DNA of 33,481 nt from a virus: the UHGV virus genome UHGV-0034894; one strand, given 5' to 3'. This document shows, one piece after another, positions 142 to 31,895 of the stretch. The notes under the pieces were generated by a model. The model was not told the DNA's origin. It made no database searches and was given only the letters and a program-made list of their open reading frames with translations. Each line of letters opens with the position of its first letter. Within the stretch, counting starts at the first letter, position 1. The position numbers and the translations under genes are program-made.

Positions 142-165
142 AATGTGTTATTGAATGTGTTATTG
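142..165. repeat. Tandem 12-bp repeat AATGTGTTATTG x2 (plus partial third copy) in AT-rich non-coding DNA
   Basis: Read directly from sequence; function unknown. Confidence 0.5.
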
Positions 166-310
166 AATTTATGGTGCAAAAAAATTTTGCATACGTTCAG
201 CAACACAAAGAGCTCCCCTTTCTATAAAGGTTCATTTGAGACTCCCCCTTGACTCCCTCTTCGAAATTGAAGACCATTAACTGTACATAATTACAGTCCT
301 GGATAATATT

Positions 311-28861: not shown

Positions 28862-29002
28862 ATTTAAGTCTCCACTTTCGTCTATAGCGCAAATTTATAC
28901 GAAAACGGATTATTCAGCAATACGGCAATTCTATATCATCCTGGATTAAAATATCCGATAACGCATAATCACCGTCCCTGTATACAACATGGATGAATCC
29001 AA
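28862..29002. promoter_or_regulatory. Divergent cI/cro promoter-operator region
   Basis: 141-bp AT-rich gap between divergent regulators; contains GATAACGCATAAT motif also found downstream of cI. Confidence 0.5.
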
Positions 29003-29677
29003 ATGATTGATACTACCGATATCCTTTCTCAAAACATCAAGTACCTGATGGACAAAGCCAAGATAAGCTCGATAACTGAGCTGGCACGTCGGTTACAACT
29101 GAACCAACCAACGCTACACAGGCTGGTATCAGGAGAGGTGAAAGATCCGAAATACGCAACGTTAAAGCAGATCGCCGACTACTTCCACGTGTCACCAATA
29201 GACCTGGCAGAAAGGAGCCTTCAAGAAATGGAGAAAGAGGACGCGACGGGTATAAAAACGTATATTTCTCTTAGGTTTAATAAAGTACCTGTTTTGGGAA
29301 ACACTCAGCTAGGCGTTGGAGGACTTTGGAGCGACACCCAATATTCAGTAGGTAGCAGTGATGGTTTCATATACTGGCCGACAAAGGATGAAGATGCATA
29401 CGCCCTGAAATGTGTTGGTGATTCAATGATGCCTAGAATCAAAGAGGGTGAGTTCGTAATCGTCGAACCCAACCACGACTACACTCCTGGTGATGAAGTA
29501 CTTGTGGTTACCCGGGACGGTGAGGTCATGGTTAAAACCTTCTTGTTCGAACGCGATGGCCTGTTCCATCTAATGTCTGTAAATGAAGATCATCCACCAG
29601 TCAGAGTACCACGCGAAAACATTGAAAAAATCCATTACGTGGCGGGGATCGCCAAATCCGCGCTACGCATGTACTAA
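29003..29677 (+). CDS. CI-like prophage repressor (HTH plus S24 LexA-like autopeptidase domain)
   Basis: N-terminal HTH; C-terminal GDSM catalytic Ser context and conserved Lys (VMVKTF). Confidence 0.85.
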   Translation: MIDTTDILSQNIKYLMDKAKISSITELARRLQLNQPTLHRLVSGEVKDPKYATLKQIADYFHVSPIDLAERSLQEMEKEDATGIKTYISLRFNKVPVLGNTQLGVGGLWSDTQYSVGSSDGFIYWPTKDEDAYALKCVGDSMMPRIKEGEFVIVEPNHDYTPGDEVLVVTRDGEVMVKTFLFERDGLFHLMSVNEDHPPVRVPRENIEKIHYVAGIAKSALRMY

Positions 29678-29761: not shown

Positions 29762-29790
29762 TTGACGCAAAATCCCATAACGCATATAAA
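29762..29790 (+). promoter_or_regulatory. Strong sigma70-like promoter (TTGACG-17 bp-TATAAA) with overlapping operator-like ACGCATA motifs
   Basis: Near-consensus -35/-10 with 17-bp spacer read directly; CGCATAATTAATGCG near-palindrome just downstream. Confidence 0.5.
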
Positions 29791-30052
29791 TACGATACCG
29801 CATAATTAATGCGTTTTTTAATACCAGCTCTTTAACAAACTGAACCGCGTGACAGGTAAGCCGCAGTACTCCTGGCAAAATGAAATGGCACCCGATGGGA
29901 TCGAGGTAAGCGCCGAGTCCGTATGCGTACGGTAAGCGTAGAGGACAACACCGCGACGAACTGATAAGTCACGCAAGTTGAAACGCCCCGACGATGGGGC
30001 GCTTAGTTCCTTTAACTCTGGGTGGCCGGAAGGGTACCCATGCTTAAAGAAA

Positions 30053-30622
30053 TTACTGGTTGTAAGGATCGTAATCCGTGATTGCCTTCCCCGGATTTTC
30101 ATCTTCAGCAGGCAGTCTGGCCTCTAAAGCATTTCGGTTGAACAGATAGGAAGCCCTACAGTGCGAACAAACCATATTAACGGCTCGCCCAAGGCCTGGC
30201 TTAATAACCAGACCTTCCGCTTGCAATATAGATTTTCTCTTTTGCTCGTAGCAATTGGGACAAATATAAACCGGAGATTGGTCAGTATCTGCAGAAAGCT
30301 TGCTGCGATAGACCAGAGTACCCCGCATAGGCTGGTAAAGTTCATAGCTCGCCGCTTCAGCGGCCCAGTTCTCTTGCTTTACTTTCTCATTTTCCAGTTC
30401 AACAATTTTCTCCTTAGCCGCAATCAGCAGCTCCTGAAGCGACATTTGCTGCATCTGAACATCCATTAGCTTATCGAGTAAGGTGTGCGTCTTCTCTTTA
30501 ACTGCATAGTCGACAGTCAGATTCTGAATCTCTCTTGCTGCTCCAACCGCGCCTTTAATTGCTCCTCCCACGCCGGATAACGATTCAGTTATCCGGGAAA
30601 GAATTCCTTTTTCTTCAGACAT
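30053..30622 (-). CDS. Coiled-coil / zinc-ribbon protein (189 aa) in the immunity region; candidate accessory gene
   Basis: CPNC...(21 aa)...CSHC zinc-ribbon motif after a predicted coiled coil; convergent with cI. Confidence 0.6.
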   Translation of the reverse strand: MSEEKGILSRITESLSGVGGAIKGAVGAAREIQNLTVDYAVKEKTHTLLDKLMDVQMQQMSLQELLIAAKEKIVELENEKVKQENWAAEAASYELYQPMRGTLVYRSKLSADTDQSPVYICPNCYEQKRKSILQAEGLVIKPGLGRAVNMVCSHCRASYLFNRNALEARLPAEDENPGKAITDYDPYNQ

Positions 30623-30636
30623 ATCTAATCTCTCTC

Positions 30637-30684
30637 AAACTGTAGGGGTGAAGAGATATTAGACGATTTCTCACTGTAGGGGTA
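30637..30684. repeat. Direct repeat ACTGTAGGGGT x2 (33 bp apart) immediately upstream of the 189-aa gene
   Basis: Read directly; candidate regulator binding sites. Confidence 0.5.
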
Positions 30685-30761
30685 CAAGGAGAACCACCTC
30701 GCCTGATGTGGTTAAAAGCAGGCACTCGATGATATCCATGTAATTGCTGTGTGTAGTCTTT

Positions 30762-30788
30762 GCCCGCCGCAAATGACGGGCTTTTTTA
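30762..30788 (+). terminator. Plus-strand rho-independent terminator upstream of the early plus-strand operon
   Basis: GCCCG-(10-nt loop)-CGGGC followed by UUUUUU. Confidence 0.5.
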
Positions 30789-30846
30789 TGTCTGAAAGCG
30801 CACTCGCAACAGCGCGCTCCCCGATATGAAAAAAGGAATACAACCG

Positions 30847-30996
30847 ATGAAACCTGAACACCTCTATCGACTGACGGGGCGCGATGTTCTCCGTTATCGC
30901 CGTAAAAACTTCGATTTGATGACCGGTCTGGCCGTTGCCACTGCGCTCGGTCTGATCATCACTTTCATTCTCCTTGTAGCGAGGACCACAGTATGA
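30847..30996 (+). CDS. Small membrane protein (49 aa), not in ORF track
   Basis: AAAGGAA SD 9 nt upstream of ATG; basic N-terminus then TM helix (LAVATALGLIITFILLVA); stop overlaps the next ATG (ATGA). Confidence 0.4.
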   Translation: MKPEHLYRLTGRDVLRYRRKNFDLMTGLAVATALGLIITFILLVARTTV

Positions 30997-31895
30997 GTTT
31001 AGAAACCAGTCTCGAACTTAATAATCAACTTCTGGCACAACATAATGCGCTGCTTGAACGTCTTATCCGCACAATGGCATCAGGTATTGTTATGCATCCT
31101 GACACGATTTCACGAGTGCAGGAATGTCGGGATACAGCAACTGAAACTGAAAATATGTCAGCGGCAATGACACTGGATGATCTGGAGTTCAGCGACGTTA
31201 TCGCACTGGCTGGTTTCTACCCAGTAGCCACCCCTATCACAGAAGACATGCTGCAACGTGCTGTTGCCTACCGTGATGCTGAAGGCGATAAACGAGTAGT
31301 TCAGATTGATGCTCTCGACAGCGCATTGCAGGGCGTCAAACGAGCCAGGGCGCTGCTTAAACCTGCTCTCCTGGACCTGTCCCGTAACATCCTTAAGTTC
31401 TGGGACGACCTGCCAACCATCGGCGAGCGACGTGCTTTTGCCGAGCAGCTACTTGATGCACCTGCGGATGGGCGTGATGAAGTTAAGCCGAAAAAGGCCA
31501 GTAACAAAGATGGAGAACGCACGGGGCCGTTTTACGTCAAAAATGTATCCGGCACAGCAGCCAGTGAACTCCACACCTTACGCAAGTTGAACGAGATGCT
31601 GAAAAAAGGCCATATCGAGACCAACCGTGTTGAGTACCTTCAGCTGCAGGAAGAATTTGCACGCAGAGACACAGCAAATTCCAGCCAGAATAATGACGCC
31701 AAAGATGACCATACAATTGATTTCGCGGCACTACGCAAACAAGCTGAAGGGTTGATCCTCCAGTTAGCAAAAGGGGGTTACCGGGCAGAAGCTATTGCAA
31801 TTCTGGAAAAACAGGGAGCCAGGAAACTTGGTGAAGTAACGGATGAAAATCTCGCTGAAGTAATCACCCTGGCTGAAAAAGCACTGGAGGGTTAA
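30993..31895 (+). CDS. Hypothetical early protein (300 aa), likely partner of the downstream nuclease
   Basis: Tight 3-bp spacing to nuclease gene; no family recognised. Confidence 0.5.

Follow-up and report, generated by a model that had tools for sequence, protein, structure and literature searches.

The PsieB-sieB-esc system of phage P22, in which sieB encodes both SieB and the truncated Esc, was reportedly described, with its sas antisense RNA of about 105 nucleotides, by Ranade and Poteete in 1993. The sas RNA pairs with the sieB mRNA and blocks SieB while Esc continues, and its action lets P22 escape its own exclusion system (PMC12197685, PMC10002423, PMC12888859). Among host small RNAs, RprA depends on Hfq. 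RNase E cuts RprA upstream of its most conserved region, which is the seed, and the processed RNA also regulates by itself (PMC5137417; see also PMC6202311). Phages also make small RNAs of their own, such as StxS, which arises from tR' by early termination (PMC7547250). In this study we analysed a stretch of viral DNA of 33,481 nucleotides (nt), UHGV virus genome UHGV-0034894, called the window here, and in particular its positions 30637-30996, which lie just upstream of a 189-amino-acid (aa) gene on the minus strand and reach the end of the first gene of an early operon on the plus strand. An earlier note, made from the sequence by a model, had labelled this stretch a control region. That label is borne out, and the parts it named are real; the stretch is, however, a junction of two unrelated regulatory modules and not a single operator region. 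One module is a cassette homologous to sas-PsieB in front of a gene of the Rip1 type, and the other is an intrinsic terminator that resembles the 3' end of RprA; the earlier note had missed both this likeness and the Rip1 type of the 189-aa gene. We consider it probable that a sas-type switch on the rip1-like gene, together with an RprA-like terminator and attenuator, explains the region.

The cassette (module 1) occupies 30623-30727, and its homology to other phages spans about 105 nt. Window positions 30620-30725 share 81% identity with lambda 34499-34395, the stretch directly in front of sieB. The sequence of P22 sas is given in PMC13397905 and aligns with the same stretch, and an alignment of P22 sas, HK446, lambda and the window contains 67 invariant columns. 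As in P22 and lambda, the element has the same place relative to the start codon and covers the promoter and start of an exclusion gene opposing pL, and it has the same architecture of hairpins and a pseudoknot. The features of the cassette and of the gene that it fronts are as follows.

30053-30622, minus strand: 189-aa gene, homologue of HK446 Rip1 (phrog_1244; PDB 9OOX), the cassette-controlled cargo
30623-30649, minus strand: inferred 5' untranslated region (UTR) of the rip1-like mRNA, 27 nt, transferred from P22 (BK000583)
30639-30649, plus strand: direct repeat copy 1, ACTGTAGGGGT; its complement is cargo mRNA nt 1-10, and in RNA it is apical in stem-loop 1 (SL1)
30649, minus strand: inferred transcription start, the A of ACCCCTACAG (complement of repeat 1); the homologous base is the sieB RNA start in BK000583
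30656-30661, minus strand: -10 element TAATAT of the cargo promoter, between the repeats, coinciding with the annotated P22 sieB promoter
30673-30683, plus strand: direct repeat copy 2, ACTGTAGGGGT; in RNA it is apical in stem-loop 2 (SL2), and it overlaps the -35 and spacer of the cargo promoter
30681-30686, minus strand: TGTACC, the -35-like element of the cargo promoter, which overlaps the distal repeat and is homologous to the end of the BK000583 promoter feature
30624-30663, plus strand: SL1 hairpin, an 11-base-pair (bp) stem with one mismatch, in which the complement of the Shine-Dalgarno (SD) region pairs with the -10 region
30668-30693, plus strand: SL2 hairpin, UGUA-GGGG-UACA inside an outer stem UUCUC/GAGAA, found by RNAalifold
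30692-30723, plus strand: H-type pseudoknot, with S1 AACCAC/GTGGTT (30692-97/30708-13) and loop GCCTG (30701-05) pairing with CAGGC (30719-23)

The cargo behind the cassette here is of the Rip1 type and not SieB, as it is in P22 and lambda. A phmmer search of the PDB with the 189-aa protein returned 9OOX (Rip1) with an E-value of 8.5e-48 over residues 3-166. An AlphaFold2 model with a mean predicted local distance difference test score of only 71, compared with 9OOX by Foldseek, gave an E-value of 2e-10, a template modelling score of 0.85 on the target and 50% identity to Rip1 over the aligned stretch. The four zinc-ribbon cysteines are conserved. The helical N-terminal half, the zinc-ribbon C-terminal half and the upstream cassette are all shared with HK446 Rip1, although the window protein is 25 residues longer at its C-terminus. 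In HK446, rip1 occupies the sieB slot, with N before it and an anti-restriction gene on its other side, and the same cassette precedes it; the window gene comes immediately after the pL leader. A blastp comparison gave no link between the 189-aa protein and SieB, and the protein matched no PADLOC (2023), Pfam or NCBIfam family. On these comparisons the 189-aa gene is best identified as an anti-phage defence gene of the Rip1 type and not as sieB. Rip1 stands for 'ring interacting pore 1'; the protein was solved with the T6 small terminase, and its anti-phage role, like its presumed triggering by small terminase, is taken from the title and names given by the depositors of 9OOX only. In the literature searched, of which coverage was partial, we did not meet Rip1 together with HK446. 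Cargo behind the cassette in 118 loci was SieB in 91 and a Rip1-like protein of the 189-aa family in 25. Thus the cassette appears to be portable, fronting SieB and Rip1-like genes in different phages.

Both exact copies of ACTGTAGGGGT are present, 17 and 51 nt upstream of the ATG of the 189-aa gene (30622, minus strand). Their spacing had been put at 33 bp, which is approximate, since they are 34 nt apart from start to start with a gap of 23 nt. The repeat alone is not significant: an exact 11-mer is repeated within 60 nt in 31% of Markov resamples of the window, and the 9-mer core, allowing at most one mismatch, occurs in the window at chance frequency. We judge the repeats to be real because they are conserved and not because they are statistically rare. 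Both copies are found in lambda, P22 and HK446, and in 12 of 14 distinct regions upstream of Rip1-like genes, a set gathered without use of the motif. Within this set the 10-mers vary by single changes only. A pattern scan for the element with two repeats found it in at least 120 viral contigs and 68 distinct versions; this pattern fixes both repeats, so the invariance of the 10-mers in that collection is partly by construction. In one locus (L309), with a Rip1 homologue of 51% identity, both copies read TTGTAGGGGT with the same C-to-T change, which hints that the two copies are kept alike. An inverted third ACTGTAGGG lies at 30154-30162 (minus strand) within the rip1-like gene, where the mRNA is complementary to its own first 10 nt; it falls in the zinc-ribbon codons H-C-R-A and was treated as probably a coincidence and not as a functional copy.

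The promoter of the cargo gene lies between and across the repeats. In 32 diverse versions TAnnnT is invariant (A33, T37 and A38 of alignment A2), and there are no other invariant bases between the repeats. The -35-like TGTACC matches TTGACA poorly. The sieB promoter feature of BK000583 covers the positions homologous to 30656-30686.

Several properties of the cassette suggest that selection acts on an RNA of its plus strand. Over 33 variants, SL1 had a mean folding free energy of -11.0 kcal/mol in the plus sense and -5.5 kcal/mol in the reverse complement, and contained 104 G.U pairs in the plus strand compared with 26 in the reverse complement; the stem itself varies in sequence and register among versions. 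In SL2, 97.6% of the alignment cells are paired, and every one-sided change yields a G.U pair in the plus sense. Both helices of the pseudoknot covary, CCACG/CGUGG occurring with GCCGGG/CCCGGC and AACCUCA/UGAGGUU with GCCUGA/UCAGGC, and for the pseudoknot helix the listed G.U pairs are likewise of the plus sense. The pseudoknot score was reached by 34 of 40 variants and by 50 of 800 shuffles. When SL2, S1 and the pseudoknot helix were taken together, 93.9% of the cells paired, against 28-46% with slid partners; both-sided changes were seen at seven pairs, and none of 500 shuffles reached the observed values. The plus-sense G.U pairs and the covariation thus argue for selection on the structure of a plus-strand RNA, that is, of the same sense as sas.

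The second module lies downstream on the plus strand and consists of two parts.

30742-30761, plus strand: RprA-like seed tract, with the 17-mer TTGCTGTGTGTAGTCTT at 30744-60 (Rfam RF00034, blastn and alignment with K-12 rprA)
30762-30788, plus strand: RprA-type intrinsic terminator, GCCCG (30762-66) paired with CGGGC (30777-81), a 10-nt loop and six T (30782-87)

The terminator, which had been proposed at these positions from the sequence, has the hairpin and the run of six U and is conserved with varying stems in relatives; it also heads the plus-strand early operon as was suggested. RNAfold predicted it in a 178-nt context, and the isolated segment has a folding energy of -9.2 kcal/mol. Our consensus scan missed it because the loop limit of the scan was 8 nt and the loop here has 10. 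Searched against the Rfam model of RprA in E-value mode, positions 30678-30791 scored about 50 bits with an E-value of 5e-5, and a shorter stretch gave an E-value of 7e-6, the scores lying at 49.3-50.2 bits; at Rfam gathering thresholds there was no match in the whole window. The match is carried by AAUUGCUGUGUGUAGUCUUUGCCCG, which agrees at every position with the best-conserved columns of the RprA model, and by the hairpin and U tail. A run of about 25 nt is identical to RprA over its most conserved tract, which is single-stranded in the processed form. By blastn, the annotated rprA gene was matched in 5424 of 5426 E. coli genomes with 84.8% identity over 46 nt. Relatives L038 and L078 keep the RprA loop (CUCCCAC) while their stems have changed compensatorily. 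In contrast to RprA, the module is carried by a phage, is fused to an RNA that precedes it and stands at the head of an operon.

Exact copies of the 17-mer TTGCTGTGTGTAGTCTT were found in at least 120 viral contigs and about 100 contexts, none of them host rprA. Of 95 distinct sequences that follow it, 79 contain a hairpin and then a T-run, and the stems are of at least 37 kinds. We also examined 44 loci containing the gene p49 (described below), which were chosen by homology of the adjacent p300 and so independently of the motif. The 17-mer lies within 260 nt upstream of p49 in 39 of these (32 exact, seven with one substitution), and across the family the module is 60-130 nt upstream of p49. 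Only five of the 44 loci carry the sas cassette. Where relatives lack the cassette (L221, L178, L162), the RprA-like module follows directly on the pL leader, so the rip1-like gene and cassette amount to an insertion of about 730 bp (about 30003-30733) between the hairpin of that leader and the module. Other cargo occupies this slot in L246, L250, L255, L219 and L226, which have the same early operon as the window, and the slot looks like a hotspot for defence or accessory genes. One such cargo is a plus-strand open reading frame (ORF) that runs up to the module and ends in a CPGCG zinc ribbon; with plus-strand cargo of this kind, the RprA-like RNA would have a 3'-UTR origin in lysogens.

Other contexts of the module differ more widely. 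In loci ranging from L129 to L243 (e.g. L137, L136, L169, L216, L187 and L181) the 17-mer and terminator stand behind very different upstream elements, among them tRNA-like T-arms, the ends of ORFs, and large RNAs that are framed by GTTGTGGT...ACCACAAC and have a boxA-like GCTCTTT upstream of them. In the unrelated contig L181 an Rfam DicF match overlaps the module, so that a DicF-type terminator carries an RprA-type seed. These varied contexts suggest that prophage small RNAs are built from interchangeable seeds and terminators. Erwinia amylovora phages Ea9-2, Frozen, Rexella, Gutmeister and Tellus (71-76 kb) match the tract and terminator with about 85% identity over 47 nt, in regions annotated as hypothetical proteins. 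With StxS, DicF and IsrK, prophage small RNAs that arise when transcripts of early or late operons are terminated or processed, the module would share the origin of a short RNA as a by-product of a terminator preceding genes under antitermination control, and the Hfq-type 3' layout. It differs in that the seed is that of RprA; the window itself has no Rfam match to DicF (RF00039) or IsrK, and pL, unlike PR', should be repressed in lysogens. A phage mimic of RprA, or the term 'RprA-like', was not met in the literature searched, a search of partial coverage that is no proof of novelty. As far as that literature shows, module 2 is an undescribed, putative phage-borne copy of the RprA seed and terminator.

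Transcripts of the plus strand are likely to come from a pL-type promoter upstream of the 189-aa gene, where the following features were found.

28950-28967, 29769-29786 and 29787-29804, flanking cI: three copies of an operator-like 18-nt motif (AATATCCGATAACGCATA-like)
29762-29790, plus strand: inferred pL-type promoter, TTGACG (29762-67), a 17-nt spacer and TATAAA (29785-90), read from the sequence
29827-30001, plus strand: pL leader, with boxA GCTCTTTAACAA (29827-38), the closing pair GCGTGAC/GTCACGC (29847-53/29968-74) and a hairpin at 29984-30001

The pL-type promoter at 29762-29790 reads rightward as a good sigma-70 promoter; a simple promoter scan did not call it. The 18-nt copies, of which the one at 28950-28967 lies in the cI-cro spacer, are probably the right and left operators (OR and OL), the OL pair overlapping the inferred pL. 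In the leader, boxA is followed by about 165 nt of almost invariant sequence with a predicted multi-branch fold closed by GCGUGAC/GUCACGC, and by a GC hairpin. Phages with a CI of only 25% identity share this leader, and a U.G variant in the leader hairpin of L221 fits a plus-strand RNA. No Rfam match was found for the leader, nor any similarity to lambda or HK022 or to phage records beyond close relatives. The order of promoter, boxA, structured leader RNA, terminator and early genes is that of lambda nutL/N and HK022 put. In contrast to lambda nutL/N, no N-like ORF is present among the ORFs of the window between pL and the first terminator, and the function of the leader here is a presumed one. 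We regard the leader as a candidate RNA for processive antitermination of the nut or put kind. A 28-aa leader ORF (29849-29935) was ruled out by a 2-nt deletion and a stop in L202. A 47-aa coding sequence, URC08718.1 (29735-29878, minus strand), which overlaps the operators, pL and boxA, is probably spurious; it is found in GenBank only and not in RefSeq.

Downstream of the terminator the early operon begins with two genes, preceded by a conserved hairpin.

30797-30818, plus strand: AGCGC/GCGCT, a conserved hairpin of the p49 leader, downstream of the terminator and upstream of the SD, from the family alignment
30847-30996, plus strand: p49, gene for a 49-aa tail-anchored membrane peptide (phrog_11981)
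30993-31895, plus strand: p300, a 300-aa gene, second in the early operon (phrog_6784)

The leader hairpin shows compensatory AACGCA/TGCGTT and U.G variants in relatives and is preceded by a conserved CUGAAAGCGC. The 49-aa ORF had been predicted with a strong SD, a C-terminal membrane anchor and a stop overlapping the start of the 300-aa gene, and each of these features was confirmed: the SD is AAGGA at 30833-37, nine nt before the ATG, and the stop overlaps the next ATG as ATGA. It had also been called unlisted, which is true only of an ORF track limited to at least 60 aa, since it is already annotated as URC08720.1 and WP_000801676.1. The ORF is intact in all 15 distinct DNA versions from relatives. 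Their median ratio of nonsynonymous to synonymous substitution rates is 0.27. Stops occur in both remaining frames, and 14 of the 15 keep the ATGA coupling to p300. The 52 homologues, 46-49 aa long, come from Escherichia, Salmonella, Citrobacter, Enterobacter, Edwardsiella and Trabulsiella. They have a near-invariant, basic N-terminus (MKPEHLxRLTGRDVLRYRR), then a variable hydrophobic segment and then ILLVAR. An alternative start that would give 56 aa (30826) was rejected, as relatives do not have this ATG in frame and every homologue begins with MKPEH. By these comparisons p49 is a genuine, conserved peptide under purifying selection, predicted to be tail-anchored in the membrane, and its translation is, to judge from the overlap, coupled to that of the 300-aa gene. 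Searches of Pfam, NCBIfam and PADLOC gave no match for p49 or for p300; the sole match of p49 was phrog_11981, a family that has no assigned function.

These results can be combined into a mechanism. It builds on homologies, covarying structures, synteny and coding constraint, from which we infer transcription, pairing, efficiency of termination and action in trans. In a lysogen, the Rip1-like protein would be made from its own promoter, on an mRNA starting at the proximal repeat. Once pL fires, rightward transcripts would run antisense through the 189-aa gene and the cassette and yield a sas-like RNA composed of two repeat-bearing hairpins and then the pseudoknot. SL1 of this RNA is complementary to the whole 27-nt 5' UTR and the SD of the rip1-like mRNA, so synthesis of the defence protein would be blocked. 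By analogy with P22 sas, the shut-off would keep the phage from aborting its own growth. Here, in contrast to P22 and lambda, which have no intrinsic terminator at that place, the RNA can continue to one. Module 2 (30742-30788) would then end the transcript of the pL leader and sas element, giving a small RNA with an RprA-type 3' end, in which a U-rich tract, a hairpin and a U tail have the layout of an Hfq-binding module. The same terminator would also attenuate the early operon p49-p300-DUF2800, with read-through presumably provided by the leader that contains boxA. A further idea, which we put forward only tentatively, is that a family of temperate enterobacterial phages, along with many other viral contigs, carries a mimic of processed RprA, consisting of its seed and Hfq-type terminator, at the point where early transcripts first end. 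On infection or induction its RNA might take over part of the RprA regulon or compete for Hfq, and in the present phage it would be fused to a portable sas-type 'anti-suicide' switch for interchangeable abortive-infection genes (SieB, Rip1 and others).

A number of observations weigh against this mechanism. Across cassette versions there is no conserved plus-strand promoter beside the cassette, because the upstream sequence is variable cargo coding sequence. Pairing in cis as an antisense RNA leaves the near-invariant, duplicated 10-mer unexplained; possibly both loops contact the 5' end of the mRNA, or the 10-mer has a role in the promoter at the DNA level. An internal product like Esc, as in P22, is not evident here, the first internal Met being codon 53 and lacking a convincing SD, so the 'translational switch' of P22 may not apply. 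For the second module, the RprA match of about 50 bits is below the Rfam gathering score of 70, and the terminator stem is modest (5 bp, -9.2 kcal/mol). Alignment with K-12 rprA shows that, unlike RprA, the module is without the 5' stem-loop and the rpoS-pairing region AUCCCCUGAGUGAAACAACGAA; a partial AUCCCCUGA is present only in some relatives. No target of the RprA-like seed was found within the window at up to three mismatches. Repression of pL is expected in lysogens, which would limit production of the RprA-like RNA to brief periods. The available leader sequences are too alike to show covariation, so that covariation lends antitermination by the leader no support.

Other explanations were considered for each part. 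For the repeats, the ACTGTAGGGGT copies could be DNA sites at which a protein, whether a phage or host regulator or RNA polymerase, controls the promoter of the 189-aa gene. The repeats do bracket the -10 exactly (at about -30 and at +1 to +10), and the 10-mer is almost invariant while its flanking stems vary, an invariance that antisense complementarity alone does not need. The non-canonical -35 makes an activator or an unusual recognition conceivable, and the copies in L309 share their C-to-T change. Nevertheless, we consider such sites quite unlikely as the explanation. Because the cassette is portable across lambda, P22, HK446 and this phage, whose repressors are unrelated, and moves with different cargo genes, a phage-specific regulator is improbable, and with it the proposal of the earlier note that the repeats bind the phage's own regulators. 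The repeats of this phage that resemble CI operators differ from ACTGTAGGGGT in sequence and are found at other places (28950-67, 29769-804), and the homologous positions in P22 are the start and promoter of sieB, inside the sequenced sas RNA (PMC13397905). The covarying stems and the restriction of G.U pairs to the plus sense also point to selection on RNA, although roles of the repeats in DNA and in RNA are not mutually exclusive and could coexist. Alternatively, the plus-strand RNA, about 170 nt with the sas-like part and the RprA-like 3' end, might be a small RNA gene with its own promoter, expressed in the lysogen and tuning the Rip1-like protein constantly. A -10-like TCTAAT can be read at 30624-29 (plus strand), and many non-lambda versions of the element have a terminator of their own at the end. 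This TCTAAT has no -35, the versions of the cassette share no plus-strand promoter, the simple scan found none in 30600-30850, and reviews have sas made by the superinfecting phage; we hold a separate promoter to be very unlikely.

For the second module, it is possible, though we doubt it, that the RprA-like tract is a cis-only terminator or attenuator with conserved context, acquired by recombination with the host in either direction, and that no small RNA acts in trans. The tract always stands at the ends of operons or RNAs with a T-run following, its distance to p49 is kept throughout the family, no target is found in the window and the rpoS-pairing part of RprA is absent, all of which fit this explanation. 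Against it, the 17-mer is kept unchanged where the stem, the loop and the neighbouring sequence differ (at least 37 stems in about 100 contexts), and in the sample gathered independently of the motif only seven of 39 copies have a single substitution, whereas terminators need no specific sequence 5' of their stem. Moreover, the tract is the most conserved, seed-bearing part of processed RprA, and StxS (PMC7547250) and DicF are precedents for phage small RNAs made by early termination. As for p49, it could be a toxin of the host-killing or lysis type that the terminator keeps silent, being a small tail-anchored membrane peptide with a conserved basic N-terminus and the first product after the terminator. 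We think this unlikely: p49 matches no Pfam, NCBIfam or PADLOC family, its coupling to and conservation with the 300-aa gene (14 of 15 versions) suggest a functional partner, and no antisense feature resembling an antitoxin was seen.

Several points follow. The sas/PsieB system is already known; what is new here is its attachment to a different and newly characterised defence gene. The antisense switch described for P22 sieB in 1993 appears to be a mobile cassette that also fronts Rip1. Its presence on rip1 offers a possible answer to how a prophage bearing Rip1 avoids killing itself on induction, and its sequence is a handle for finding further defence genes in the same slot. In many phages an early-operon terminator copies the most conserved part of a core host small RNA while its surroundings change. 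Should the RprA-like RNA act in trans, this would represent widespread copying of a host regulatory RNA by phages, and it would raise the question whether the host gene or the phage module came first. For p49, sequence comparison points to a well-conserved peptide at the first position of an early operon that has no function assignable from its family.

The wider layout agrees with that of related phages. Escherichia phage vB_EcoM-606R2 has 100% identity to the whole window; prophages in E. coli chromosomes match the queried segment as well, and 49 genomes cover most of this query. Upstream of pL lies the repressor gene:

29003-29677, plus strand: gene for a CI-like repressor of the LexA family, followed by a terminator

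Near the locus the minus strand carries a gene of the primase type and a cro-like gene. After the pL-type promoter come the non-coding leader, the 189-aa gene (minus strand), the studied region and then p49-p300-DUF2800-DUF2815 (plus strand). In the phage family the order is primase-cro-cI-[variable]-RprA-like module-p49-p300-DUF2800, and CI identity across the family ranges from 25% to 93%. Compared with P22 and lambda, this temperate E. coli phage lacks an N gene, and its early operon (DUF2800/DUF2815/PolA) is not of the lambdoid kind. At 142-168 (plus strand), close to the left end of the window, there is a tandem 15-nt duplication (AATGTGTTATTGAAT) with copies starting 12 nt apart.

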